DNA of 64,000 nt from assembly GCA_003242735.2 (NCBI GenBank), contig QGVH02000009.1:7660-71659 (forward strand), read 5' to 3'. The DNA comes from a bacterium. GTDB taxonomy: Bacteria > Gemmatimonadota > Gemmatimonadetes > Longimicrobiales > RSA9. Shown in pieces: positions 8,471-39,661 of the stretch (positions are counted from its first letter, which is position 1; each line of letters starts with the position of its first letter). The translations under genes were made by a program, and so were the position numbers. Under the pieces are notes generated by a model. That model worked only from the letters and a program-made list of their open reading frames with translations, did no database searches and had not been told where the DNA came from.

Positions 8471-8710
8471 GGCTCCTGGGCGATGCCCATCGGACGTTCC
8501 TCGCGCGGCGGCATCGTCGCCGCCACGCCGCACGCCGGCCGGCTGCCGCCACGCTCCGCCGTGGCGAGTCGGGCCGCCGCGGGAAGCTGGGCCGCAGCCC
8601 TCATCGTGTCAAACGATCCCGCCGCGACGAGCCCGTCCTCTTGTGGGATGTCGCAGCGTCCCCCACCATACCGGCGGCGCGGGACTCGTCAGTACACCCC
8701 CACGGAGCGC

Positions 8711-9130
8711 ATGTCCATGGCAGCCGAGACCTCCACCTACCTCCTCATCTTCCGCGAGACCACGCCGGAACGCTACGAGGCGCTCTCCCGCGAGGAACGC
8801 ATGCAGGCCCTCGCGCGCTGGAACGCCTGGTGCGACGAGCTGGTGGCGCAGGGCAAGCTCAGGAGCGGCAACACGCTGCAGCCCGAGGGCCGCGTCGTCA
8901 CCAGGCAGGGCACCACCGACGGCCCGTTCGCCGAGGCCAAGGAGGTCGTCGGCGGCTATTTCCTCCTCGAGGCCGCGAGTCTGGACGAGGCCACCGCGAT
9001 TGCCGAGCAGTGCCCCAACCTGCCGTACGGCATGGCCGTGGAGGTCCGGCCCATCGGCCAGGCCTGCCACCTCGCCCGCTCGCTGGGCTGGACGACGATG
9101 CGCGGGCCCGGAGACGGCCAGCCGGCCTGA
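8711..9130 (+). CDS. YCII-related (DGPF) domain protein
   Basis: The internal ATG at 8711 is in frame with ORF 7988..9130. The sequence TDGPFAEAKEVVGGYFLLEAASLDEATAIAEQCP is typical of the YCII/DGPF family. It is divergent from the sigma factor gene. Confidence 0.85.
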   Translation: MSMAAETSTYLLIFRETTPERYEALSREERMQALARWNAWCDELVAQGKLRSGNTLQPEGRVVTRQGTTDGPFAEAKEVVGGYFLLEAASLDEATAIAEQCPNLPYGMAVEVRPIGQACHLARSLGWTTMRGPGDGQPA

Positions 9131-9735: not shown

Positions 9736-10158
9736 TCACGGGCGCTGCCGTGCGGCCGTCTGCTCGCGCAGACGCGCCTCGCGCTCCCGGATCCCGGCCG
9801 TGGCTGCCTCGCCGAAGTCCTCGATCTCGAACACCTGCCGGATCTCGATCTCGCCGTCGCGGAAGGGGACGCGCTTGACCCACTCGATCGCCTCTTCCAT
9901 GGACCTGGTTTGGATGAGCCAGAACCCGGCGATCAGCTCGTTCGACTCGGAGAACGGACCGTCGATGACCGTCCGGTCCTGGCCATCGAACCGCACCCGC
10001 GCGCCCCGGGAGCTGGGGTGCAGGCCCTCACCCGCGAGCAGCACGCCGGCCCGGACCAGCTCCTCGTTGTAGCGGCCCATCGCTTCGAGCTGTTCGGTGG
10101 TCGGCATGACGCCGGCCTCGGTCTCCTCGTTCGCCTTGACCAGGAGCATGAAACGCAT
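9736..10158 (-). CDS. YCII-related domain protein
   Basis: The start is ATG 10158 with a GGGAGG SD. The product begins MRFMLLVKANEETEAGVMPT and continues IDGPFSESNELIAGFWLIQTRSMEEAIEWVKRVP. The upstream 49 codons of the track ORF were discarded. Confidence 0.85.
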   Translation of the reverse strand: MRFMLLVKANEETEAGVMPTTEQLEAMGRYNEELVRAGVLLAGEGLHPSSRGARVRFDGQDRTVIDGPFSESNELIAGFWLIQTRSMEEAIEWVKRVPFRDGEIEIRQVFEIEDFGEAATAGIREREARLREQTAARQRP

Positions 10159-14684: not shown

Positions 14685-14975
14685 GCGTCTCCTTTGCTGC
14701 TCGTGTGGTGCACGTGGTCTATGTACGAATCGAGGCCGGAGCGGGATCGGTGGCCATGCCGGTCACGACCCGCTTGCGGCCGACGGAACCTGCTCGTTAT
14801 CCATCATACTACCGAAGCGCCGGGGTGGGGATCCGCGGCCGGCGGGGGCAGCGGGCGGTCGGGGGAGGCCAGGGGAGCGTCTCTCGGCCCGGGTGGGCCG
14901 GGGGAACAATTCCGCGCCGTCCGGCGGTATTCACGGATATCGCACGACACGGCGAGCGTCTTCCGGGAGGTCCTC

Positions 14976-15785
14976 ATGCTTCGCCTCCGTGTTCGCAGCG
15001 CCGTCCCGGCCGCCGTCCTCCTTGGCGGCCTGACCGTGGTTGCGCCGCCGCTCGAGGCGCATCCGGCCGCCGAACCCGACCCGCCGTCGGCACCTGCCCC
15101 GATGCTCCGCGCTCCGACGGGCCCGGACTTCCTCTTCGGCGCCCCGCACGGCTCGCTCTCGCTCCGCATCGGCCGGCTGTTCGCCCGCACGGAGGGCGGT
15201 GTCTTCGAGCGCACGTTCGCCAACCTCTCGGCGGAGCCGGACGACTTCGATGGGCTCACCCTCGGCGCGGACCTCGCGCTCCGCGTGGTCGACCGCGCGG
15301 ACCTGGTCGTCGGCGTGGGGTTCGCGCGAGCGACGGTCGACTCGGAGTTCAATGATTGGCTGGACGAGAACGGCCAGCCCATCCGCCAGACGACGCGGTT
15401 CCGCCAGATCCCGGTCACCCTCGGCGCCCGGCTGTACCTCACGCCCCGGGGCCGCGAGATCAGCCGGTTCGCGTGGGTCCCCGCGCGTACGACGTTCTAT
15501 GTCGGCGGCGGCGCCGGCCTGATCCACCACCTCTACGAGCAGGAAGGCGAGTTCGTCGACGAGACGTCTCTCGACATCTTCGCCGATCATCTGAGCTCGA
15601 GCGGCTGGTCGTCGCTGGTGTACGTCGGCGCCGGCGCCGAGCTGCGGGTGACGACGAGCGTCGCGCTCGTCGCGGATGTCCGCTACACGCGCGGCTCGGC
15701 CCGCGCCACCGGCGACTTCAGGGAATGGGAGGACATCGGCCTGGGCGGGCTCGCCACGTCGGTCGGCGTGGCCCTGACCTTCTGA
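14976..15785 (+). CDS. Outer-membrane beta-barrel protein (hypothetical)
   Basis: The start is ATG 14976 after GGGAGG. The signal peptide is MLRLRVRSAVPAAVLLGGLTVVAPPLEA. The C-terminus ...SVGVALTF is typical of a barrel. It forms an operon with the next gene (14-nt gap). Confidence 0.7.
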   Translation: MLRLRVRSAVPAAVLLGGLTVVAPPLEAHPAAEPDPPSAPAPMLRAPTGPDFLFGAPHGSLSLRIGRLFARTEGGVFERTFANLSAEPDDFDGLTLGADLALRVVDRADLVVGVGFARATVDSEFNDWLDENGQPIRQTTRFRQIPVTLGARLYLTPRGREISRFAWVPARTTFYVGGGAGLIHHLYEQEGEFVDETSLDIFADHLSSSGWSSLVYVGAGAELRVTTSVALVADVRYTRGSARATGDFREWEDIGLGGLATSVGVALTF

Positions 15786-29667: not shown

Positions 29668-30438
29668 ATGCCGAAGGACAAGGACCTCAAGCGCCTGGTC
29701 CGGGCGCGCATGGCGAAGACGGGCGAGTCGTACACCACCGCCCGCGCCCGCATCATCGCGAGGAAGCACGAGCAGATCCCAGAGTCTGCAGCCGCCCAGC
29801 CCGTTGCAGCAGCGGTGAACGCCGGGGAGACACTCGCCGTGCCGGCCGCTGCGCCCGCGACCGCTGCACCGCTCTCGCTTCCCGACGATTACGAGAAGAT
29901 CGCCGGCAAGAGCGATGCGGCGGTGAAGAAAGCATCGGGTCGGACGTGGCCCGAGTGGGTCGCGCTGCTCGACGGCCACGGCGCGGCGGGCATGGAGCAC
30001 CGCGCGATCGCGAAGCTCGTGCACGAGGAGTACGGCGTGGGCGAGTGGTGGGCGCAGATGATCACCGTCGGCTACGAGCGTCTGCGCGGGCTGCGCGATG
30101 TCGGCCAGCGGCGCGGCGGCGCCTACGAGACGAGCAAGAGCGTGACGGTCGCCGCGCCGGTCGAGGCGCTGTGGCGCGTCGTCTACGACCGGGCGCAGCG
30201 CGAGCGCTGGTTGCCGAGCGTGGATCTCGAGGTCCGCACGGCCACGGAGCCCAAGTCGCTGCGCGCCCGGCTCGCCAACGGGATCAAGCTGGAAGCGTAC
30301 TTCACCGCGAAGGGGCCGGCGAAGAGCACGCTCGCGGTCCAGCTCAAGGGCCTCCCGGACAGGGAGGCGGCGCGGGCCGCAAAGGAGTTCTGGGGCGAGC
30401 GGCTGGCCACGCTGAAGGCGCTGGTCGAGCGGGAGTGA
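29668..30438 (+). CDS. DUF4287-like domain protein with an SRPBCC-like C-terminal half
   Basis: The start is ATG 29668 after GAGGAG. The central segment SGRTWPEWVALLDGHGAAGMEHRAIAKLVHEEYGVGEWWAQMITVGYERLRGLR is typical of DUF4287, recalled from memory. Confidence 0.7.
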   Translation: MPKDKDLKRLVRARMAKTGESYTTARARIIARKHEQIPESAAAQPVAAAVNAGETLAVPAAAPATAAPLSLPDDYEKIAGKSDAAVKKASGRTWPEWVALLDGHGAAGMEHRAIAKLVHEEYGVGEWWAQMITVGYERLRGLRDVGQRRGGAYETSKSVTVAAPVEALWRVVYDRAQRERWLPSVDLEVRTATEPKSLRARLANGIKLEAYFTAKGPAKSTLAVQLKGLPDREAARAAKEFWGERLATLKALVERE

Positions 30439-30569
30439 GGGCGAGCACGCTCGGAGGACGTGGATGAAGAACGGGGTGGCCCGCTGCGGCGGGGGCCACC
30501 CCGTTCGCCGTCGGCGGCGGCGACGCCGATGCATCCCACGGCAGCGCGCCTTTCGCATCGCCCGCAGGG

Positions 30570-31868
30570 TCACCCGTGCGCCGGGGCGAGCAACGCGCGC
30601 AGATACCCGGTCCACCGGGCGGCCCGCGCAGAGCTGTCGGCGGGCTGGTCACCCCCGGATTGCGGCTCGCGGTTGCGCTGGACCGCCTCCCACGCCTCTT
30701 CGCTCTCCCACGGCCGGTGAGCGCCGTGCCCCGACCACCTCGGCGCCATGCCCGCGGTCCAGAGGAGGCGGCGCAAGCGCACGGACGGACACGGCCCGGG
30801 ATTGCGCGGGTACAGCGAGGCGATGTAATGCCGCTCGAGGAGGTCCAGCACCAAACGCGGCCGCGGGGGACGGAGCCGCTCGAGGACAGGCGGGGGCACG
30901 GTCACGTGAGCGAGTGACCGCGCGAGACGGAACGTCCAGTAGCACGCGGTCGTTGCACGCGCGGCCCGAGCGGCGTCCACGACTGCATCCCAGTCCACCG
31001 GGGTGCGTCCGAGGATCTGGTGCAGGTCACGGAACGTGCGCCACGACGCATGCGCGAGGCCGTGCGACCACGCGAAGTGCACGGCCAGGTGCAGCACCTG
31101 ATGTTCAGTGGCAGGGACGAGCGCACGCCGGCCGTGGATCTCTATGGCACGCGCGCTACGCCAGATCGTCTCCGCAGGAAGATGGATGGCGTCCGTCTGA
31201 CTGAGCGCCGCGTGCAGCTCCAGCGCGATGCCCGTCCCCAGCGGGTCGAGTAGAGGCGGCAGGTGGTGGTGCGCCTCGTAGATCTCGGATGGGTACGCTT
31301 CGGCGTCGTGTACCCAGCCGGCGGCGCGCAGCGCCTCCCACGCGGCGGCGACGTGCTCCTGCCTGACCAGCAGATCCACGTCGTACATCGGCCGCGCTGC
31401 GAAGGAGCCGTACGCCGTCGCCGCGACACCCGCCCCCTTCAGCAAGACGACGTCGATGCCTCGTTCCGCGAGCGCGTCCAGCGCGCCGATGAGGAGCTGC
31501 TGGAGCCGGAGCATGCGGAACTGCGTGGCGCGCACGAGCGCGGCGAGGCGAGTGCGCGAGGTCGGCGGGATGCTGTCTTCGGGCGCGCGGTCCGTGAGCC
31601 CTGCGAGGGCACCAACGGCTTTCTCTTGCCACGCGAGTGTGAGCAACGCGTCCCAATCCAGCGACGGATCCTGCAGCGCCGCTGCGGCTCCCGCCGGATC
31701 GAGATCGGGCTGGATTGCGGCGAAGAGGACGCGCGCCTCGGGGCAGAGGAGCCGGCGGCTCACGCTGTTCAGCGCGTCAGCCACGGGACGACGGCAGGAC
31801 CGACAGGGACGGGAGAGGCAGCATGGCAGCAATCGGTCCCCGGGGGGCCGCGGCCCCCCGGGACGCAT
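30570..31868 (-). CDS. Nucleotidyltransferase-fold protein (NTP_transf_5-like), lasso-cluster tailoring candidate
   Basis: The 432-aa product contains ERGIDVVLLKGAGVAATAYGSFAARPMYDVDLLV and LHLAVHFAWSH, typical of the uncharacterised nucleotidyltransferase family seen in RiPP/lasso clusters. Its start lies 5 nt after the stop of precursor A1. Confidence 0.8.
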   Translation of the reverse strand: MRPGGPRPPGDRLLPCCLSRPCRSCRRPVADALNSVSRRLLCPEARVLFAAIQPDLDPAGAAAALQDPSLDWDALLTLAWQEKAVGALAGLTDRAPEDSIPPTSRTRLAALVRATQFRMLRLQQLLIGALDALAERGIDVVLLKGAGVAATAYGSFAARPMYDVDLLVRQEHVAAAWEALRAAGWVHDAEAYPSEIYEAHHHLPPLLDPLGTGIALELHAALSQTDAIHLPAETIWRSARAIEIHGRRALVPATEHQVLHLAVHFAWSHGLAHASWRTFRDLHQILGRTPVDWDAVVDAARAARATTACYWTFRLARSLAHVTVPPPVLERLRPPRPRLVLDLLERHYIASLYPRNPGPCPSVRLRRLLWTAGMAPRWSGHGAHRPWESEEAWEAVQRNREPQSGGDQPADSSARAARWTGYLRALLAPAHG

Positions 31869-31873
31869 CAGCG

Positions 31874-32014
31874 TTACGAGCGATCCTTGTCCTTGCAGAA
31901 GAGCTCGTCGCCGTCGCCGATGCCGAAGATGCCGCCGTCGCAGTCCGGGTTCGTCCCGAGCCGTGTCAGTTCACGCACCGACCCGAACCGCTCGAGCTTG
32001 GGCTTGATGTACAT
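31874..32014 (-). CDS. Lasso peptide precursor A1 (46 aa): MYIKPKLERFGSVRELTRLGTNPDCDGGIFGIGDGDELFCKDKDRS
   Basis: These are the last 46 codons of the spurious track ORF 31874..33268. ATG 32014 is preceded by AGGAGGGAGT. The leader KPxLE...ELT-x resembles known lasso leaders. It lies immediately downstream of the cyclase and is a paralog of A2. Confidence 0.8.
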   Translation of the reverse strand: MYIKPKLERFGSVRELTRLGTNPDCDGGIFGIGDGDELFCKDKDRS

Positions 32015-32034
32015 ACTCCCTCCTTTGGGATGAT

Positions 32035-32082
32035 GGGTTGCGGGCGACTGGCCCGCGCAGCCTGTCGCACCCGCGACAGGAT
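32035..32082 (-). repeat. Copy 1 of the 48-nt double-hairpin element upstream of a precursor gene
   Basis: It matches 38487-38534 at 47 of 48 positions. The minus-strand RNA reads AUCCUGUCGCGGGUGCGACAGGCUGCGCGGGCCAGUCGCCCGCAACCC. Hairpin 1 is CCUGUCGC/GCGACAGG and hairpin 2 is GCGGGC/GCCCGC. Confidence 0.75.
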
Positions 32083-32085
32083 CGG

Positions 32086-34053
32086 TCAGATCGCAACGGT
32101 TGCCGCCGCAACGACCGTAGCGTTCGTCGGTTTCTCCAGACTTCCGGACGCGTTGCCTCGCCGGGCACGCAGCCAGAGCTCCGTCTGGAGCGTGTAGTAG
32201 AGGCCGACCCGGGTGGCGGCGTCTCGGCGGCGCGGGTACTCCGCGCACGCGCGGCGCAGCTCTTCGGCTCGAACGATGCCCAGCTCCTCCAGCACGAGCG
32301 GCTCGCGCATCGTCCGTTCGAGCAGACCGGGGAACACCTCCACCATCCAGCGGTGCGAGTAACCACCGGTGATCCCGGTCCGGTACGGCCGCGGGGCGAG
32401 AACCTCCTCCGGCAGCAGACCGTGCATGGCCCGCCGGAGCAGACGCTTGGTCTCCTTGCCGGACGATCGCTCCCACCAGGGGCGCGACACGGCGAATTCG
32501 ATAACACGCCGGTCTGACAACGGCGAGCGGACCTCGACGCCCTCGCGCAGCGCGAACCCCGTGATCAGGGCGAACGCGCGGGAGACGAAGAGCGAGGTGA
32601 AATGCCAGTCGATCTCCCGGCCCGCGTGCGTGGCGGGGATCTCCCGCGTGAGGAACTCGCGGTCGCGCGCCTCCAGCTCGTGGCGCGCGACGAACTCCGG
32701 GTTCAGCCAGGACGGGATCGGGCGCTCGAGATAATGCTTCAGCCGCCGTCCGCCCCGGAGCCACGCGGCGAGGCGGAGCGCTGGCTCCGGCAGGTTGGGC
32801 TGGATCACCCACTTGAAAAACGGCCGGAACCCGCCGCGCGGCCGGGCCCGCCACTCGCGCGCCACCGTCCACCAGCGCCCTGCCCGGAACAGGTCGGCCA
32901 GGAAGACGTCCGAGTTCTGGAAGAGCTGGTCGCCGCCGTTGCCGTCCATGGCGACGCGTGCGCCCAGGGCCCGGGCCCCGGCTGCGAGCGCGCCGTTCCA
33001 CCGCTCGTAGAGGTGCGCGTACGGCTCGTCCCGGGCCGCCGCCCGCTCCTCCTCGCGCTCCAAGAACGGGATGTCCGCGATGTCGATCCAGTGGACGGCC
33101 CCCCCCCACCGGTCCGCGATCGCCTGGATCCACTCGTCCTCGCGCCCCGGGTCGCCTTCGGGGTAGCTGATCGAGACCGGCCGCACGGCCGCGTCCAGGC
33201 CGTCCCGGCGGATCACGTGGCACGCCGCGCCGAACACCGCGGTCGAATCCCACCCGCCGCTCATCCACACGGCGTTCACCGCGCCCGGCTGCAGCCGCTC
33301 CCGCACCGCCGTCGCCAGCAGCTCACGCAGGTGCACGGCCGCATCCTCGTGCGAGAGCCGGCTGGGCTCAGCGTTCACCGGCACCTCCCAGTACCGGACC
33401 GGGCCGTGGAGACGGCCGTCCGACCAGCTCATGCGGTGCGCGTTGGGGAGCACGCGCACCGCCGTGTAGCAGGTCTCCGGGCCCGCGGAGAAGTGCAGGC
33501 CGGCGATCGTCGCCCCGAGGATCGGCAGGTTCAGGTCGTCCGGGCAGCGCGGGTGCGCGACGACCCCGCCGATCGTGGACGCCACGACCAGCTCGCCGCC
33601 GAGCTCCGCGTAGTGGAGCGGACGTTTCCCGCCGAGATCCCGCGCGCACAGGACCCGCCGCCTCGCCCGGTCCCAGAGGATGAAGGCGAAGTCACCCTCG
33701 ATGTGCGACACGCAGTCGTCGCCCCAGGCGCGATAAGCGGCGAGGATCAGGTGCGCCGGCGAGTCGCCGGCCGGGCTCACGCCACGCTCGCGCAACGCCC
33801 GCCGCAGGTCTTCGCGGTAATAGACGGACGCGTCCGCCGCGACCACCACAGCGCCGTCCTCGACGACCAGCACCGGGCCGCTGAACGTCGGGTCGAGCTC
33901 CCATTCGTGGCGCGCGACCGCGAGCACGGCATCGCCGCCCCGCCAGATCTGCAGACGATCCCCGCCCCGGGCCGACATGCGGCCCAGCATCGCGCGGATC
34001 TGCGCATCCGTCACAGACGGCGCGTCACCGAACACCCCGACAATTGCGCTCAC
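32086..34053 (-). CDS. Lasso peptide cyclase (asparagine synthetase B-like, McjC-type)
   Basis: The 655-aa product starts at GTG. It has an N-terminal Ntn-like domain without the catalytic Cys (MSAIVGVFG), the PP-loop WMSGGWDSTAVF and a C-terminal Asn-synthase fold. A precursor gene lies 71 nt downstream. Confidence 0.92.
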   Translation of the reverse strand: MSAIVGVFGDAPSVTDAQIRAMLGRMSARGGDRLQIWRGGDAVLAVARHEWELDPTFSGPVLVVEDGAVVVAADASVYYREDLRRALRERGVSPAGDSPAHLILAAYRAWGDDCVSHIEGDFAFILWDRARRRVLCARDLGGKRPLHYAELGGELVVASTIGGVVAHPRCPDDLNLPILGATIAGLHFSAGPETCYTAVRVLPNAHRMSWSDGRLHGPVRYWEVPVNAEPSRLSHEDAAVHLRELLATAVRERLQPGAVNAVWMSGGWDSTAVFGAACHVIRRDGLDAAVRPVSISYPEGDPGREDEWIQAIADRWGGAVHWIDIADIPFLEREEERAAARDEPYAHLYERWNGALAAGARALGARVAMDGNGGDQLFQNSDVFLADLFRAGRWWTVAREWRARPRGGFRPFFKWVIQPNLPEPALRLAAWLRGGRRLKHYLERPIPSWLNPEFVARHELEARDREFLTREIPATHAGREIDWHFTSLFVSRAFALITGFALREGVEVRSPLSDRRVIEFAVSRPWWERSSGKETKRLLRRAMHGLLPEEVLAPRPYRTGITGGYSHRWMVEVFPGLLERTMREPLVLEELGIVRAEELRRACAEYPRRRDAATRVGLYYTLQTELWLRARRGNASGSLEKPTNATVVAAATVAI

Positions 34054-34266
34054 AGCACGATACCCGAATTGCGCGGTCCCAACGCGCTACCACGAAGTGG
34101 AGTTGGCCGACGCTCGCGGCGACGGATCACATTCGATACCCCGGGCCGATGTGGCCGCGCGCGCCAGCGGCCGGTTTGCAAGGGGAGTGCCATTCGGGGT
34201 GGCCACTCATCTCGTAATATGACAACATGTTACGGTTTTTTGGCGCGACGTGTCGGCGGTTCGGCC

Positions 34267-34315
34267 TGTTGCAGGCGATCATCATCTTGGCGCCCAGAAA
34301 AGTCACCATTTTGTC
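34267..34315 (-). repeat. Copy 1 of a conserved upstream non-coding block (candidate promoter/operator of the cyclase unit)
   Basis: It matches 39057-39106 at 38 of 50 positions with one 1-nt gap. Shared blocks are TGTTGCAGGCGA, CATCA, TGGCGCC, GTCACC and TTTTGTC. It lies in the 299-nt gap between the permease stop and the cyclase start. Confidence 0.5.
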
Positions 34316-34352
34316 GCAGTGAGATCGCCGCACGGCAAGCGGGTCCGTCCCA

Positions 34353-35153
34353 TCAATAATGTGAGAGAGACCCGACGCGCCGCGCGTACGCGAGCGCGAC
34401 CCGCAACGCGATCATCCCGACGGACAGCAAGCCGACCACGAAAAGGGCGAGGATCGCGAGGTCCGGCAGCACCGCCCGGAGCGGCTCACCTTCCAGCAGG
34501 GTCCGGCGCAGCGCCCGAAGGCCGTAGGTCAGGGGAATCATCCCGGAGACAGACTCGAGCCAGGACGGAATGACGTGCGTCGGGTAGTAGACGCCTCCGA
34601 GGAGCGCGGAGAGGGTCGTGACGGCCTGCGGCAGTGGGCCCGTCGTGCGGAAAGCGATGACCAGCGCCGCCGCCATCATCCCGAACGGAACGTAGGCGAG
34701 GACAATGAGCAGCACGATGAGGAGGGCGAGCCCGACCCGCGACCAGAGGATCGTCGCGCCCAAGAGCCATGCGCCGACGAGCATGGTGGCGGCGCGCAAA
34801 CCCGCCCATAGCAGGCTGAAGCCGATCAGCCCGGCCAGGACCTCGGACAGGCGGGTTCGGGTGCCGAGCAGGGCCTCGAGCACGCCGGTATTGATGCCGG
34901 AGCCGATCTCGCCCGCGAGCGCGTTGACGCTCACGGGGAGGAGCAGGAACGTCATCGTGCCGACGGCGAGGAATGCGAAGTATTGATCGCCCTCCGCAGC
35001 GATCTTGTCGGCCATGATTGGCTGGAGCGCGTTGGCGACGAAGAACAGCGGCACGACGGTCGCGAGCAACGAGAGGGTGGAGAAGACCATGCGGACGCGA
35101 TAGCTCCGTGCCGCGAGCCAGCGCGCGCGGATCAATGCGACGGCGCCTCGCAT
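34353..35153 (-). CDS. ABC-2 type transporter permease (lasso export/immunity candidate)
   Basis: ATG 35153 overlaps the ATPase stop (ATGA). The 266-aa product has about six TM segments. The upstream 54 Arg-rich codons of the track ORF were discarded. Confidence 0.85.
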   Translation of the reverse strand: MRGAVALIRARWLAARSYRVRMVFSTLSLLATVVPLFFVANALQPIMADKIAAEGDQYFAFLAVGTMTFLLLPVSVNALAGEIGSGINTGVLEALLGTRTRLSEVLAGLIGFSLLWAGLRAATMLVGAWLLGATILWSRVGLALLIVLLIVLAYVPFGMMAAALVIAFRTTGPLPQAVTTLSALLGGVYYPTHVIPSWLESVSGMIPLTYGLRALRRTLLEGEPLRAVLPDLAILALFVVGLLSVGMIALRVALAYARRVGSLSHY

Positions 35154-36235
35154 CAGTCCTCCGCCTTCAGGCGGACCATGCGCTCGAGCAGGTCCGCGAG
35201 GGTGACCGGTCTGTGCTCGACCCCGCAGACGGCGACTCCGTGCCGGACCAGATGGCCCACCATGTCGGCGACGCCGTCGGGGCCGCCGGGAATGGGAGCC
35301 TCGACGACGGCCCAACGGGCGGTGCCGCGACCGTCGTCGAGCGTCGCGCCAATGTGTCCGGCGCGGGCGAGTGCGCGGAGCGCGTCGTCGACGTGGTCGG
35401 CGCGGACCGTCAAGCGGTACATGTCGTCCCGGACCTCGCCCATCAGTTCGTCGAGCCGGCCGACGGCGAGCAACCGCCCGCGATCGAGGACCGCGACGCG
35501 CTCACAGAGCTCGAACGCCTCCTCCGCATTGTGGGTCGCCAGGAGGATCGTGCACTGCTGGCGGCCGACGATCTCGTCGCGGAGGAAACGGCGGAACTGG
35601 CGCGCGGCGACGGGGTCGAGGCTCCGGGTCGGCTCGTCGAGCAGGAGCACCTTCGGCCGCGCCAGCAGCGCTCGCGCGATGAGGAGCCGCTGCTTCATGC
35701 CGGAGGAGAAGGTGCCGACCAACTTGCTGCCGGTGTGCTGGAGCCCGACCGCCTCGAGCAGTTCCCCGACGCGCGTCGACACGTCCCGGCGAGGAACGCG
35801 GTAGAGGGCCGCGAAGAGCTCGAGGTTCTCGCGCGCCGTGAGTCGCCAATCGAGGCTGCGCTCGTCCGGCACCACGAGCGCGAGCGCGCTCCGCACGGCG
35901 TGCGGCTCGCGAAGGATGTCGTGGCCTGCGATGCGCGCCGTGCCGGCGTCGGGGAGCAGCAGTGTGCTCAGCATCCGGAATAGGGTGGTCTTGCCTGCGC
36001 CGTTCGCGCCGAGCAGGCCGAAGAACTCGTTGCGGCGGATGTCGAAGCTGACGCCGTCGACGGCGGTGATGCGCCGCGCCCGGCGCCAGGGAGCGCGCAG
36101 GATCTCACCCCAGGTGCGCCGCTCGGGAAACGCCTTGGTGAGCCCCTGGACGGAGACGATGGGCTCGCCGTCGGCCGGGCGGGCGGCGGACGCACTGGCG
36201 TGTTGCGACGATGCAGTGAGCGGCGCGGTGGTCAT
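35153..36235 (-). CDS. ABC transporter ATP-binding protein (lasso export/immunity candidate)
   Basis: ATG 36235 overlaps the kinase stop (ATGA). It has Walker A GANGAGKTT, signature FSSGMKQR and Walker B LLLDEPTRSLD. It is part of the 751-aa track ORF 35153..37408, whose 5' part is spurious. Confidence 0.9.
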   Translation of the reverse strand: MTTAPLTASSQHASASAARPADGEPIVSVQGLTKAFPERRTWGEILRAPWRRARRITAVDGVSFDIRRNEFFGLLGANGAGKTTLFRMLSTLLLPDAGTARIAGHDILREPHAVRSALALVVPDERSLDWRLTARENLELFAALYRVPRRDVSTRVGELLEAVGLQHTGSKLVGTFSSGMKQRLLIARALLARPKVLLLDEPTRSLDPVAARQFRRFLRDEIVGRQQCTILLATHNAEEAFELCERVAVLDRGRLLAVGRLDELMGEVRDDMYRLTVRADHVDDALRALARAGHIGATLDDGRGTARWAVVEAPIPGGPDGVADMVGHLVRHGVAVCGVEHRPVTLADLLERMVRLKAED

Positions 36236-37203
36236 GGCGTCGTGCCGGCGAGAGACTGCGCGTGCCAGTCGCGGATGGTGGCGACGGCCTCCTCGAGCCG
36301 ATCGAAGTCGCGCACGATTTCCAGCCGGTAGACGGGGACGCAGGCTGCGAGCGCCGTCGCGTGCCGGAACAGGTTCGGCGCCTCGGGGCCCGTGAGCAGC
36401 GGCGCCAGCTTGGCGTGGCCGAGGATCACCAGGGCCGCCTCCATGCCGGAGAGCCGCGTGCGGCGGACGGCTGCGCCGTCGGGTGCCTCCCGGACCGGGG
36501 CGAGCAGGTACAGCGCCGCGAGCGGGTGCGTGCAGTGAGAAACGCGCTCCTCGGGCAGGGCGCGGAACACGGTCTTCGGCCCCACGGCAGCGGGCGCCGC
36601 CTGGCCGATGCCGACGACCCTGGCCGAGTCGGCCCAGAGACGGGCGGCGTGGAGGCCGGGGCCTGCGAGCGGCGGCGAGCCGGCAAGGACCGGCATGGTG
36701 TCGTCGGTGAGGAGCTTCCCGCCGGACCTCACCAGCGCGAGCGCCAACGTTGACTTCCCGTGCCGCTTCGGCGCGACGAACCCGACGGCCTGCCCGTCCA
36801 GCACCACCGCGCTCCCATGGAGACAGACGGTGCCGGCGGCGTACAGCGCGGTGGCGAGCACGCGGCTGGTGATGTCGGCCCGCGCGTCGGCGGCCGAGAC
36901 GTCCTCTGCATGGGTCCACGTGATGGTCCGGCCATCTGCGGCGATGTCGAAGCAGCCGGTATCGTCGAAGACCAGGCGGAACCCGTGGCTCGTGCGGTAA
37001 AGACGGGTCTCGACGCCCGCCGTCACCGTGTCGCTCCCGAGCGGGACGCATTCCGCCTCCGGCGGCTCGCCGACCCGCGAGCGGAGGACCCACGTCACGT
37101 CCTCCGCGGGATCCGCCGCCTCGAGCTCCGGGATCGCCAGATCGCTCTCGAGGACGCCGCCGAAGAGCCGATAGCGATGCCTGATGGAGGGCTCGTTCGT
37201 CAT
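36232..37203 (-). CDS. HPr kinase/phosphorylase-related kinase (lasso precursor Ser kinase candidate)
   Basis: The 323-aa product has P-loop-like VAPKRHGKSTLALAL and LHGSAVVLDGQAVGF, typical of HprK-related kinases in kinase-type lasso clusters. Its start codon directly abuts the B2 stop codon (37203/37204, no overlap). Confidence 0.8.
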   Translation of the reverse strand: MTNEPSIRHRYRLFGGVLESDLAIPELEAADPAEDVTWVLRSRVGEPPEAECVPLGSDTVTAGVETRLYRTSHGFRLVFDDTGCFDIAADGRTITWTHAEDVSAADARADITSRVLATALYAAGTVCLHGSAVVLDGQAVGFVAPKRHGKSTLALALVRSGGKLLTDDTMPVLAGSPPLAGPGLHAARLWADSARVVGIGQAAPAAVGPKTVFRALPEERVSHCTHPLAALYLLAPVREAPDGAAVRRTRLSGMEAALVILGHAKLAPLLTGPEAPNLFRHATALAACVPVYRLEIVRDFDRLEEAVATIRDWHAQSLAGTTP

Positions 37204-37662
37204 TCAGAACTCGACCAGCCGGAGATCCGGCAACCGGGTGAACGTCTGCACGTGCTGCCGCGAGTCGCCGATCACGACACCGTCCAGCTCGATCCACGCG
37301 TGCGCCTCGAACTCGCCGTTGCGCCTGCGCACGCCGACGTTGATCCTGCTCGCCGTGATCCCCCGCCGTCGCAGCATCCGCTGGATCGCCATCGATCGGA
37401 CCAGGCATTGCGGCCGGAAGACACCGTACCTCGCTGCCCGTGTCACCGCCCAGGCGACCGCCTCCGCAATGCGTCGATCCTCACGGCTCGGTGCTCGTCG
37501 CTCGGGCTCGGGCTCTGCCCTCCCGAGGAGCTCACCGACGGGGCGCCGCCAGCGTTCGTACTGGCACGCGAGCAGCACCACCTGGGCCTCTGCGAGCAAC
37601 CGCACCTCTCGCAGAGTGAGCCCGCGGAGTCGGCGGAGCCACACGGCCGCGGTCCGGGTCAT
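37204..37662 (-). CDS. Lasso peptide B2 leader peptidase (transglutaminase-like cysteine protease)
   Basis: The 152-aa product has a Cys...His...Asp context (RPQCLVRSMAIQRML, EFEAHAWIELDGVVIGD), typical of the McjB C-terminal domain family. Confidence 0.85.
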   Translation of the reverse strand: MTRTAAVWLRRLRGLTLREVRLLAEAQVVLLACQYERWRRPVGELLGRAEPEPERRAPSREDRRIAEAVAWAVTRAARYGVFRPQCLVRSMAIQRMLRRRGITASRINVGVRRRNGEFEAHAWIELDGVVIGDSRQHVQTFTRLPDLRLVEF

Positions 37663-37666
37663 GGGG

Positions 37667-37942
37667 TCACCGTTCGTCGGCCGGGATCACCAGGCCGTGA
37701 CGCGCCAGGTCATCGAGGAGCTCGACCACGTCGCTCCGGAGTTGCTCGGCGGGCACATCCGGATAGCGCCGCCCGAGCTCCGCGCACACCTGGTCGAGGT
37801 CCTGGCACGTGGGGGGCAGGAGTTGCCACACCTCGACACCGACGGGGTTGAGACCGAAGTAGACTTCCTGTTCCATGTGCAGGAGGATCGCGCCCTCCGG
37901 CACGGGCTGGAACAGCACGGCAGGGTGAGGTTTCGGCAGCAT
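37667..37942 (-). CDS. Lasso peptide B1 protein (PqqD-like RiPP recognition element)
   Basis: I chose the start at ATG 37942. The product begins MLPKPHPAVLFQPVPEGAILLHMEQEVYFGLNPVGVEVWQLL, a typical PqqD-family pattern. The stop lies 4 nt before the B2 start. No obvious SD is present, so the start is uncertain. Confidence 0.78.
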   Translation of the reverse strand: MLPKPHPAVLFQPVPEGAILLHMEQEVYFGLNPVGVEVWQLLPPTCQDLDQVCAELGRRYPDVPAEQLRSDVVELLDDLARHGLVIPADER

Positions 37943-38282
37943 TCGTTCAGAATCGAAACGACACTCTGGTTGAAAGCGGGTCCATGACGCCGGTGGCCGG
38001 ACGGGCAAGTCAGGGGCCGATGGGGGCCATGGCGGCCAAATCGTGAATCCGTAATGACCTGGGAGACGTCCGGCGCCGACACGGGCGCCTCGAAGCTGTT
38101 GCGTTTGCGCAACCCTGTCAGGGAGGCGGCGCGGCGGCGGTGCGACACTGCCGGCCGGGAGGGCGGCGAGCAGGCCACGGCCTCGAGGCAGCGGAGCCCG
38201 CGCCTCCCTCGTCCACCGCGTCGACCGCGGGGGACGAGGGGAGGGGGCGGAGCGTCCGGTCAGGATCGGCGCAGGGAAGGGC

Positions 38283-38304
38283 CCGGGGGGCCACGGCCCC
38301 CCGG
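38283..38304 (-). terminator. GC hairpin 10 nt after the A2 stop (attenuator or mRNA-stabiliser candidate)
   Basis: The minus-strand RNA is CCGGGGGG-CCGUGG-CCCCCCGG, an 8-bp all-GC stem with a 6-nt loop and no U tract. A gap of about 340 nt follows before B1. Confidence 0.4.
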
Positions 38305-38314
38305 CGGGTTGGTG

Positions 38315-38464
38315 CTACGAGCGGTTTCCGGTGTTGGTGCACCCTACCCAATGGCCGCGGGCGGCGTCGACGCCGAAGATGCCGCCGTCGCAATCGGTGC
38401 TGAGACCGTATTGGGTCAGCTCGCGCACCGAGCCGAACCGCTCCAGTCTCGGTTTGACATACAT
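38315..38464 (-). CDS. Lasso peptide precursor A2 (49 aa): MYVKPRLERFGSVRELTQYGLSTDCDGGIFGVDAARGHWVGCTNTGNRS
   Basis: These are the last 49 codons of the spurious track ORF 38315..38983. ATG 38464 is preceded by GAGAGGAG. It matches A1 at 24 of the first 31 residues, with many synonymous codon differences. Confidence 0.8.
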   Translation of the reverse strand: MYVKPRLERFGSVRELTQYGLSTDCDGGIFGVDAARGHWVGCTNTGNRS

Positions 38465-38486
38465 TCGATCACTCCTCTCGGGAGAC

Positions 38487-38534
38487 GGGTTGCGGGCGAC
38501 TGGCCCGCGCAGCCTGTCGCACCCACGACAGGAT
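38487..38534 (-). repeat. Copy 2 of the 48-nt double-hairpin element upstream of a precursor gene
   Basis: It matches 32035-32082 at 47 of 48 positions. The single difference (plus-strand A at 38524 versus G at 32072) turns a C-G pair of hairpin 1 into a U-G wobble on the minus-strand RNA only. Confidence 0.75.
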
Positions 38535-39056
38535 AGCACAGATGGCACCGGTAGCGCCACCCTTCGATTCGAACGGCACCTCGCCCCTCCCGCGCGGGCG
38601 AGCCGCGCGTCGGCATCGCGAGCATGCCCCGGGAACGCCTCGACCGCCCCGTGTCGGGCGGCGGGGCGCTCCCCCGAACAGGACGAGCCGGACCACCGCC
38701 CCGGAAGACGGCCGGAAAGCGCTGTGCGGTTCCGCCTCCTCCGATCAACGGGGCGCCGTGCCCGGCGGACAGCGCCCCAGCTGCGCGGGTGTGGAAGTCG
38801 GCCGCTGCGTGTGCCCAACCGAAACCGCCGACGACGGCGCGCACCGGCGCTTTCCCGCACGGATCCGGTCTGAGGGTACCACCACAGCGGGCGCTGGCCG
38901 CCGCACCCGGCGGCGCAGGAGAGACGGCCACAGCGGCTGCCGCAGCCGTTCGCTGCGCGGGGGGCCCGCAAACACGATACCAAACAGGGGGATGCCGTCT
39001 ATCTCGTGTGGCTACGAGAGTTTCGAGACGGCACGCCGTGCGGTGCGGCGCAGTCT

Positions 39057-39106
39057 TGTTGCAGGCGAGCATCAGACCTGGCGCCTGCATTGGTCACCGT
39101 TTTGTC
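39057..39106 (-). repeat. Copy 2 of the conserved upstream non-coding block
   Basis: See 34267-34315. A further shared ATCTCGT word lies 56-58 nt away in both copies (34209-34215 and 39001-39007). Confidence 0.5.
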
Positions 39107-39202
39107 CCACGGCGGCGGGCCACCGGCTCGTCGTACGATACGAGAAGGCGCCGACGAACCATGCATGGCGAAGCGTGACGCGGCCGCGCGCCGCGCGCCT
39201 GC

Positions 39203-39661
39203 TCACCCCTCCTGCTCCGCCGCCGTCGCGATCTTCGGCTCGACGGCGACGTCAATGGCGATCCCCTGGCGTACGCTCTGGGTGACGGTGCAGAAGTCCT
39301 CGAAGAGGCCGATGCAGCGCGTGAGGCGCGCGGCGTCGGCCTCGTCCAGCTCCGGGGCGAGCCGGACCGCGATGCGGCTGACGCGGAGGCGGCCCGCGTC
39401 GTTGCGTTCGATGGTGCCGCTCACCTCGGTCTCCATGCCCGTCACGGGCACATGCGCCTTCTGGAGGCAGAAGAGCAGACTCGCGGCGAGGCAGCTCCCC
39501 ACCGCGGCGCCGAGCAGCGCGGTCGGGTTCGGCCCCGCGCCCCCGCCCAGCGGCGGCGGCTCGTCGACGGTCAGTTCTCCGGTGGTCCCGGAATCGAAGC
39601 GGACCGCGAACTCGTAGCCGTCGCGCCGCGTCAGCGTGACTCTGAAGGTGTTGTCTTTCAT
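39203..39661 (-). CDS. OsmC/Ohr family peroxiredoxin-like protein
   Basis: The start is ATG 39661 after GGGGAG. The sequence GGGAGPNPTALLGAAVGSCLAASLLFCLQKAHV...CIGLFEDFCTVTQSV has the typical OsmC pattern with conserved Cys. Confidence 0.85.
   Translation of the reverse strand: MKDNTFRVTLTRRDGYEFAVRFDSGTTGELTVDEPPPLGGGAGPNPTALLGAAVGSCLAASLLFCLQKAHVPVTGMETEVSGTIERNDAGRLRVSRIAVRLAPELDEADAARLTRCIGLFEDFCTVTQSVRQGIAIDVAVEPKIATAAEQEG

Follow-up and report, generated by a model that had tools for sequence, protein, structure and literature searches.

The lasso-peptide cluster and its two precursor genes

The window analysed here, a stretch of 64,000 nucleotides (nt) with a GC content of 72% (contig QGVH02000009.1, positions 7,660 to 71,659), carries a split-B lasso-peptide cluster of an uncultured, Longimicrobiales-like member of the Gemmatimonadota. 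The genes lie in a single order on the minus strand, A2–B1–B2–K (kinase)–ABC (ATP-binding cassette) ATPase–ABC-2 permease–C (cyclase)–A1–N (nucleotidyltransferase), and the bounds of the cluster were set with codon-position GC profiles and profile searches (Pfam, NCBIfam). The focus of this work is A2, a small open reading frame (ORF) at the head of this series, which an earlier reading of the same DNA (the original prediction) had proposed as a second lasso precursor gene beside A1. The features are listed in Table 1.

The peptide encoded by A2 is the exact translation of 38464..38315 on the minus strand, and it is the same peptide as the one originally quoted. Its leader comprises residues 1–18 (MYVKPRLERFGSVRELTQ), the last of which is Q18, and its predicted core is YGLSTDCDGGIFGVDAARGHWVGCTNTGNRS. 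The A1 peptide is MYIKPKLERFGSVRELTRLGTNPDCDGGIFGIGDGDELFCKDKDRS. A six-frame motif search of the window gave exactly two ORFs with the leader motif, namely, A2 and its sole paralogue A1, which are encoded on the same strand. Both possess the canonical leader YxxPxLx3Gx5Tx (Y2, P5, L7, G11, T17 and x18), in which Thr17 is the penultimate leader position, and both score above the curated cutoff (19 bits) of the NCBIfam model NF033521, lasso_leader_L3. Because of the canonical leader spacing (T17–x18), residue 19 (Leu in A1, Tyr in A2) is the predicted first core position, and ring closure is predicted at Asp8. A core start at Gly20, giving a Gly1–Asp7 ring, is less likely: it would place the Thr at −3, against the canonical spacing.

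Three features were found in the comparison of the two peptides. One is that the first 31 residues agree at 24 positions, and the ring and first loop share the residues xGxxxDCDGGIFG. Another is that the tail Cys is located at core position 22 in A1 and 24 in A2, and that both tails end in Arg-Ser with the identical codons CGC TCG. The last is the difference in charge, the core being strongly acidic in A1 and near neutral in A2, as seen from the sequences. The proposal of a second precursor is thus upheld by the NF033521 match, the canonical leader and the position of A1 and A2 on either side of a single B1/B2/C set, and the figures given for the leader identity and for the distance between the two ORFs (6.3 kb) were reproduced, as was the charge contrast. 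The tails had, in addition, been described as fully diverged. They do differ in most of their sequence, but this wording goes too far: the Cys, a bulky residue before the Cys and the C-terminal Arg-Ser are kept.

An identical A2 protein is already public, and all public gene calls give a length of 49 amino acids. In the NCBI records (locus tags DIU52_*), both A1 and A2 are labelled "lasso RiPP family leader peptide-containing protein", where RiPP denotes a peptide that is made by the ribosome and modified after translation. A protein search with A2 returned only A2 itself and one relative, P0002. The GC content at third codon positions (GC3) is highest in the A2 frame across 38250–38550. We also considered a long ORF in the same frame (38983..38315; 222 amino acids, TTG start) as the true gene, and rejected it. 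It has no codon-position signal upstream of 38464, the public calls do not support it, and the conserved Met-Tyr start, the ribosome-binding site (RBS) and the 5′ RNA motif described below also speak against it.

The enzyme genes co-located with the precursors encode a RiPP recognition element (PqqD), a transglutaminase-like protease and an Asn-synthetase-like cyclase, and the window contains one such B1/B2/C set. The match of C to the NCBIfam lasso cyclase model (E = 6e-69, 233 bits) lies under the 525-bit cutoff of that model. The start of N was taken from public gene calls. Genes for TonB-dependent receptors are also found close by, which fits with a Gram-negative host.

Table 1. Features of the cluster, of the two precursor cassettes and of the duplicated segment (window positions, except for the last row)
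Feature	Position	Strand	Evidence or remark
A2 precursor ORF, 49 amino acids + stop	38315..38464	−	NCBIfam lasso_leader_L3, 25.5 bits
A1 precursor ORF, 46 amino acids + stop	31874..32014	−	lasso_leader_L3, 23.4 bits; public protein MFO7260507.1
B1, PqqD-type RiPP recognition element	37667..37942	−	Pfam PqqD, E 8e-18; NCBIfam lasso_PqqD matches
B2, transglutaminase-like leader peptidase	37204..37662	−	Pfam Transglut_core3, E 3.5e-25; NCBIfam lasso_biosyn_B2, 82 bits (cutoff 33)
K, HPr-kinase-like, 323 amino acids, putative kinase of precursor C-terminal Ser	36232..37203	−	sub-threshold profile matches
ABC transporter ATPase	35153..36235	−	NCBIfam drrA-type, E 9e-73
ABC-2 permease	34353..35153	−	Pfam ABC2_membrane, E 3e-16
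C, Asn-synthetase-like lasso cyclase	32086..34053	−	Pfam Asn_synthase + GATase_7; NCBIfam lasso cyclase model
N, PF14907 nucleotidyltransferase, putative second tailoring enzyme	30570..31784	−	Pfam NTP_transf_5, E 7e-44
RBS AGGAG, 7 nt before A2 ATG	38472..38476	−	read from sequence
Two-hairpin 5′ element of A2, 47 nt	38489..38535	−	R1 covariance model, 66.8 bits, E 4e-11
Two-hairpin 5′ element of A1, 47 nt	32037..32083	−	R1, 68.3 bits, E 2e-11
GC-rich 3′ hairpin of A2, 9 bp, 11 nt after stop, without U-tract	38283..38304	−	
GC-rich 3′ hairpin of A1, 10 bp	31839..31862	−	−31.5 kcal/mol, z = −3.4
Decayed A-to-N intergenic region and nucleotidyltransferase 5′ end (N′)	38152..38282	−	several 1-nt frameshifting indels
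Decayed cyclase 3′ part (C′), homologous to 32254–32344	38554..38645	−	blastn 70%; internal sequence lost
Three precursors of related locus L033 (positions in L033)	8706-8867, 9782-9943, 14863-15018		

Duplication and selection

The surroundings of A2 and A1 are related by two collinear blastn alignments. One pairs 38152–38555 with 31706–32103 at 71% identity over 411 nt (E = 1e-46), and the other pairs C′ with its counterpart within the cyclase gene over 92 nt (E = 3e-5). Because of these two collinear pieces, the duplicated unit, now located upstream of B1, can be described as the 3′ part of a cyclase gene, a precursor gene and the 5′ part of a nucleotidyltransferase gene. At the nucleotide level, the alignments show that A2 arose by duplication of this cyclase′–A–nucleotidyltransferase′ segment. 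The segment may have been duplicated locally, or it may be what is left of the entire cluster copied in tandem. The cyclase remnant upstream of A2 is seen at the DNA level only; a search for it at the protein level gave no significant match (best E = 0.066). Within the decayed segment, the survivors are the ORF, the AGGAG RBS, the 47-nt 5′ element and the GC-rich 3′ hairpin. After the duplication, the enzyme-gene fragments decayed, and these four parts were retained as a self-contained precursor cassette.

The public gene calls include a 247-amino-acid ORF at 38542–39285 (plus strand) and, in some assemblies, a 95-amino-acid ORF at 38010–38294 (minus strand). Neither has a Pfam match or a codon-position GC signal, and they overlap the C′ and N′ remnants. 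Both are probably spurious calls over the scars of the duplication.

Among the 17 codons up to Thr17, 10 differ between A1 and A2, 8 of them synonymously, and the other two give the conservative replacements I3V and K6R. The eight synonymous pairs listed in the original prediction are all correct, but the number of nucleotide differences in these 10 codons is 11 rather than 10, the AAG/AGA pair differing at two bases. By the Nei-Gojobori method, the proportions of synonymous (pS) and nonsynonymous (pN) differences are 0.73 and 0.07, respectively, for codons 1–18, and 0.61 and 0.13 for codons 1–31. Fisher tests of the synonymous excess gave P = 9e-6 and 1.6e-5. The dN/dS ratio (omega) between A1 and A2 is about 0.03–0.11, and these values are rough since dS is near saturation. 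When an equal number of substitutions was placed at random in 200,000 trials, seven or fewer amino-acid changes occurred in a fraction of 1e-5 of the trials, and a stop codon was yielded in 47%. The synonymous excess between A1 and A2 is not due to chance, and A2 is under selection. Because omega is about 0.03–0.11 with dS saturated, A2 is regarded as neither a recent copy nor a relic. The earlier claim that both copies are maintained by selection therefore stands on the contrast between pS and pN (P ~1e-5).

The duplicated segment comes with its own neutral control. In C′ and N′, the flanks that were copied together with A2, identity to the counterparts is down to about 70% and frameshifting indels are present, and yet the A2 ORF is still open. 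This contrast between the decayed flanks and the intact cassette is stronger evidence of function than dN/dS by itself, and such a control is unusually clean for selection on a very short gene.

The precursor cassette and its relatives

The 5′ element consists of CCUGUCG...CGACAGG followed by GCGGGC-CAGUC-GCCCGC, and its A1 and A2 copies are identical at 46 of the 47 positions. The motif occurs 20–25 nt upstream of nearly every precursor ATG in the window and in the related loci, which are designated here by L numbers (L001, L019–L025, L027, L032, L033 and L035). The L033 copy located upstream of B1 is without it. An alignment of the 84 nt upstream of 12 precursors resolved two hairpins. In helix 1 (7 bp), three pairs show compensatory double changes, for example, from U-A to C-G in L021 and L019, and L020 has a wholly different stem. 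There is hardly any variation in helix 2 and its loop (GCGGGC-CAGUY-GCCCGY). In the alignment, 96.8% of the cells are paired, as compared with 31–56% when the partners are slid, and the covariation score was reached by 0 of 500 shuffles. Because the G-U pairs are possible on the sense strand only, the element is considered to be an RNA element rather than a DNA operator. Folding of single sequences gave both hairpins for the A1 element (z = −2.25) and was not distinctive for the 5′ region of A2 (z = −1.25), for which the structural support comes from the covariation.

A covariance model, R1, was built on 13 copies and searched against 257 kb comprising the window and the related loci. It matched only directly upstream of precursor ORFs, in the window exactly twice, and it also matched the L035 copy, which was absent from the training set (E = 2.7e-4). 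Rfam gave no match in 30000–39500 at E up to 1. Possible roles of the element are mRNA stabilisation, mRNA processing and translational control. As for the 3′ hairpin, the stem is conserved and the loop is variable across the family members. The hairpin of A2 is likely a terminator or an mRNA stabiliser, and the 3′ hairpins were not called by the terminator scan because they lack a U-tract.

Two of the related loci, L021 (5.5 kb) and L027 (17 kb), come from two different samples and are syntenic with the window, with a nucleotide identity of about 83–91% in the left flank. Decay of A2 in such orthologous clusters, a sign against the gene, was looked for. The A2 position is occupied in both by an intact precursor of 54 amino acids, MYVKPKLERFGSVRELTR-IGLYADCDGGVFGTDNGGVGGCGGSGGGDFTDGGRS, and not by a pseudogene. 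This precursor retains the leader, G2, D6, C7, D8, GG(V)FG, the tail Cys and the C-terminal RS, and carries Ile at core position 1. Its tail is completely different from that of A2; in the nucleotide alignment, a 15-nt indel and dense substitutions are confined to the tail. It is preceded by another C′ piece, which matches window positions 32485–32567 at 83%. The A2 frame is intact in this orthologue, which is about 15% diverged.

Precursor multiplication and relocation are a habit of this family. Three tandem precursors follow C in L019 (8907–10092; equal to L032, 15250–16520), on a repeat (~520 nt, 84% identity). L033, from a Gemmatimonadota metagenome-assembled genome (MAG), has three dispersed precursors: one upstream of B1, one between B2 and K, and one after C. 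In L001, one precursor follows C and the region upstream of B1 is empty. A single precursor each was recovered from L020, L023, L034, L035, L036 and L037, some of which have a different gene order. L020 and L023 are short contigs starting within the cluster, and the count of one is a lower bound there.

The close-family consensus is M-Y-x-K-P-x-L-E-R-F-G-S-V-R-E-L-T-x for the leader and [L/I/Y]-G-x3-D-C-D-G-G-[I/V]-[F/H/W/N]-G ... bulky residues ... C ... R-S for the core. The "HWVGC" of A2 fits the pattern of bulky residues before the Cys, its W-V-G-C matching the W-I-G-C and L-V-G-C of relatives. Asp8 is invariant in all family members recovered, and a C-terminal Ser is present in all of the roughly 20 distinct precursors recovered, as Arg-Ser in the closer ones. 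The distant L036 and L037 have cores of the form AGxxxxxD, in which D8 is the sole acidic residue among the first nine, and still end in Ser. These two cores support the predicted cleavage site, Asp8 as the acceptor and a functional C-terminal Ser. The close family conserves two Cys, one in the ring and one in the tail. A2 retains all of the family-conserved processing residues: Y2, P5, L7, G11 and T17 in the leader, and G2′, D8′, both Cys and the C-terminal Ser in the core. In the precursor at 1677–1829 of L024, the ring Cys is located at core position 3 instead of 7 (IGCDPDADGG...), and there are still exactly two Cys. This fits with selection that acts on a ring-to-tail disulfide and not on one particular Cys position.

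The variation among strains is distributed unevenly over the precursors. Among near-clonal assemblies (at least 99.9% identity), about 59 distinct variable sites exist in 20 kb. The A1 cassette (31839–32083, 245 nt) contains 5 of them, as against about 0.7 expected (Poisson P ~8e-4, from a hand count): I29L, E37K, one synonymous change and two changes in the 5′ motif. L028 differs from the window at three positions in 12.2 kb, all of which are within the A1 cassette. Other public alleles of A1 have changes in the core, namely, E37Q, L38H and the insertion of Gly-Ile. Across the near-clonal assemblies, no variant was seen in the A2 ORF.

It is conceivable, at somewhat less than even odds, that the precursor genes travel as a mobile cassette of the 47-nt 5′ motif, the ORF and the 3′ hairpin. 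Such a cassette would be copied in tandem or to new sites in the cluster, and the tail part would then diversify rapidly while the leader, the ring, the Cys and the C-terminal Ser stay fixed. If so, the cluster would be a natural tail-swapping library, in which the RNA motif sets the stability or translation of the precursor mRNA. Greater novelty could lie in the precursor-specific RNA motif, in the cassette-like spread and in the diversification of the tails.

Predicted maturation, alternative readings and known systems

The cluster also contains two putative tailoring genes, K and N, which the original prediction had overlooked. K stays below the cutoffs of all related models: it matches HprK_rel_A with E = 1e-5, Hpr_kinase_C with E = 0.027 and the HPr kinase structure PDB 1ko7 with E = 0.17, and also ScmC. 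The stretch weakly aligned with 1ko7 contains the LHG, GKS and DD motifs (H129, K150, D167 and D168), and these residues do not differ between the K sequences of the window and L001, the two that were aligned. The K family comprises about 94 homologue clusters, almost all of which are metagenomic. Some members carry PF27840 (ScmC) or Hpr_kinase_C, and K itself stays below every curated cutoff. The named cluster members and kinase homologues are all from Longimicrobiales or other Gemmatimonadota MAGs. A profile search of genome contigs with the kinase alignment returned only the L001 contig. A kinase-type gene is present in every locus that covers this part of the cluster. N is a clear member of PF14907, to which PsmN of the pseudomycoidin system presumably also belongs.

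According to the accounts in PMC9266682 and PMC6993621, PadeK and PsmK, the kinases of the paeninodin and pseudomycoidin systems, act on the linear precursor, whose C-terminal Ser they phosphorylate at the side chain. For a hexose to be attached to that phosphate, the uncharacterised nucleotidyltransferase-family protein PsmN is required, and the C-terminal Ser is extremely conserved in kinase-containing lasso clusters (PMC9266682, PMC6993621). By analogy with these two systems, the C-terminal Ser of A1 and A2 is likely the target of K, and its conservation would be explained by the presence of the kinase and nucleotidyltransferase genes.

The following maturation scheme can be proposed from the sequence and by analogy with the systems characterised for paeninodin and pseudomycoidin. 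B1 would bind the YxxPxL leader common to both precursors, and K would phosphorylate the invariant C-terminal Ser of the linear precursor, which N may decorate further. B2 would cleave after Thr17–x18, and C would join the new N-terminus (Tyr1 in A2, Leu1 in A1) to Asp8, thereby forming an 8-residue ring. The ring Cys7 and the tail Cys could then form a ring-to-tail disulfide, and the ABC transporter would export the product. One enzyme set would in this way give two lassos with the same ring and different tails, acidic in A1, and near neutral with aromatic residues in A2. Because A2 has every residue that the scheme needs, the most economical reading is that one enzyme set gives two products. 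We put the probability that A2 is a functional second precursor gene of the split-B cluster at about 80%, and the cluster probably makes two related lassos.

Several points weigh against this reading. We infer the processing of A2 purely from sequence features and analogy, and the assignment of K as a kinase draws on sub-threshold matches to hidden Markov models and on conserved residues of catalytic type. In addition to the saturation of dS mentioned above, a scan for sigma-70-like promoters found none near either precursor, and a strong hairpin lies between A2 and B1. The A2 position is empty in L001, L019/L032 and L035–L037, and a second precursor is therefore dispensable. Finally, Tyr at core position 1 is unique to the A2 of the window, the other members having Leu, Ile or Ala, and its cleavage or cyclisation could be poor for this reason.

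The Tyr1 residue also speaks for an alternative that we regard as unlikely, in which A2 is translated but not matured to a lasso. The peptide might then serve as a decoy or competitor for B1, as a regulator of cluster expression or as a linear phosphopeptide, with Tyr1 or the altered tail blocking B2 or C. The absence of variants in A2 among the near-clonal strains, in which the A1 core varies, hints at different selective regimes and would fit such a role. However, all of the family-conserved processing residues are kept in A2, the orthologous peptide of L027 has Ile1 with the same conserved set, and lasso cyclases that accept several precursors are documented (the caulosegnins, cited in PMC8498205).

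It appears very improbable that A2 is instead a relic left without function by the duplication, whose open frame and resemblance to A1 would be accidents of its short length. Its location among decayed fragments, its absence from several relatives and the failure to find a consensus promoter in the sigma-70 scan would be expected of a relic. The random-substitution trials described above speak against this, as do the retention of the RBS, the 5′ RNA element and the 3′ hairpin, and the intact frame in the orthologue. We give equally little credence to the view that the leader similarity is due to concerted evolution, with gene conversion between the two genes, and not to purifying selection acting on A1 and A2 separately. 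Two stretches of near-identical DNA, namely, the 5′ element and the 21 nt encoding CDGGIFG, recall conversion, and the clustering of the three L028 differences in the A1 cassette resembles a short conversion or recombination tract. However, with a pS of 0.73, the synonymous sites of the leader are near saturation, so that no recent conversion has extended over it. The 5′ element is equally conserved in single-precursor clusters and distant lineages, so that selection suffices to explain it, and the identical codons for CDGGIFG are the preferred GC3 codons of a genome with 72% GC. Moreover, the leader protein of A2 is identical to that of the single precursor of L001 and not to that of A1. The reading of A2 as a functional second precursor gene is therefore preferred.

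The window family can be compared with several known lasso peptides. Citrulassin A reportedly has Leu at core position 1 and a Leu1–Asp8 ring. In common with the window family, its position 1 is hydrophobic and not Gly, and its ring has 8 residues, with Asp8 as the closing one. Its core is unrelated, and it is actinobacterial, with a single precursor and without a kinase. Class III lasso peptides, such as BI-32169, have a single ring-to-tail disulfide. The window family resembles them in having one Cys in the predicted ring and one in the tail, although its disulfide is predicted only. We know of no class III peptide that pairs the disulfide with a kinase and a C-terminal Ser. The classes of lasso peptides are reviewed in PMC9266682.

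The cluster joins two known types, the multi-precursor lasso clusters and those tailored by a kinase and a nucleotidyltransferase. The former is represented by the caulosegnins I–III of Caulobacter segnis (Hegemann et al. 2013 JACS, as cited in PMC8498205), which likewise have several precursor genes with similar leaders, different cores and one maturation set. In contrast, the copies in the window are not adjacent and flank the enzyme genes at a distance of 6.3 kb, and they have the ring and first loop in common, the tail being the only part in which they differ, as known here from the sequence. The window cluster also has the split B1/B2, the kinase and nucleotidyltransferase tailoring genes and a Gemmatimonadota host. 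With the paeninodin (PadeK) and pseudomycoidin (PsmK/PsmN) systems, it has in common an HPr-kinase-like gene, an invariant C-terminal Ser, an uncharacterised nucleotidyltransferase-family gene, the split B1/B2 and an ABC exporter (PMC9266682, PMC6993621). It differs from them in that K is too divergent for the Hpr_kinase_C and HprK_rel_A cutoffs, in the gene order, in cores with two Cys and with Leu, Ile or Tyr in place of Ala at position 1, and in the Gram-negative Gemmatimonadota host, which is not one of the Bacillota.

Lasso biosynthetic gene clusters have been counted or predicted in Gemmatimonadota MAGs (PMC11316326), and in the literature we found no report of an experimentally characterised Gemmatimonadota lasso cluster of this family. 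The conceptual advance is small in that multi-precursor lasso clusters are established and both ORFs were already labelled as lasso precursors by the NCBI pipeline. What the locus adds is the combination found in the family (Gemmatimonadota, kinase, nucleotidyltransferase, two Cys and a non-Gly position 1) and an example of a small ORF, easily overlooked by a gene-caller, that is a genuine gene under selection. As A1 and A2 have a common ring and different tails, they would also be a ready pair for probing how far the cyclase, kinase and exporter tolerate different substrates.

Two minor observations concern other assemblies. In some assemblies of the same organism from the Joint Genome Institute (L009, L013 and L014), 1-nt indels are found at 33108 and 33097 in C and at 31437 in N. 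They either truncate N or break up the cyclase, of which a 325-amino-acid fragment is then called, and may be sequencing errors or genuine inactivating variants. The other observation is a mosaic structure: the identity of the window to L027 is about 100% between 37210 and 30400 (from K to N and beyond), and 50–90% from 37210 upward (B2, B1, A2 and the flank). The same junction near 37210 is present in L021, from another sample. This suggests, with a small residual chance of an assembly chimera, that the boundary between B2 and K (~37210) is a recombination breakpoint within the cluster.

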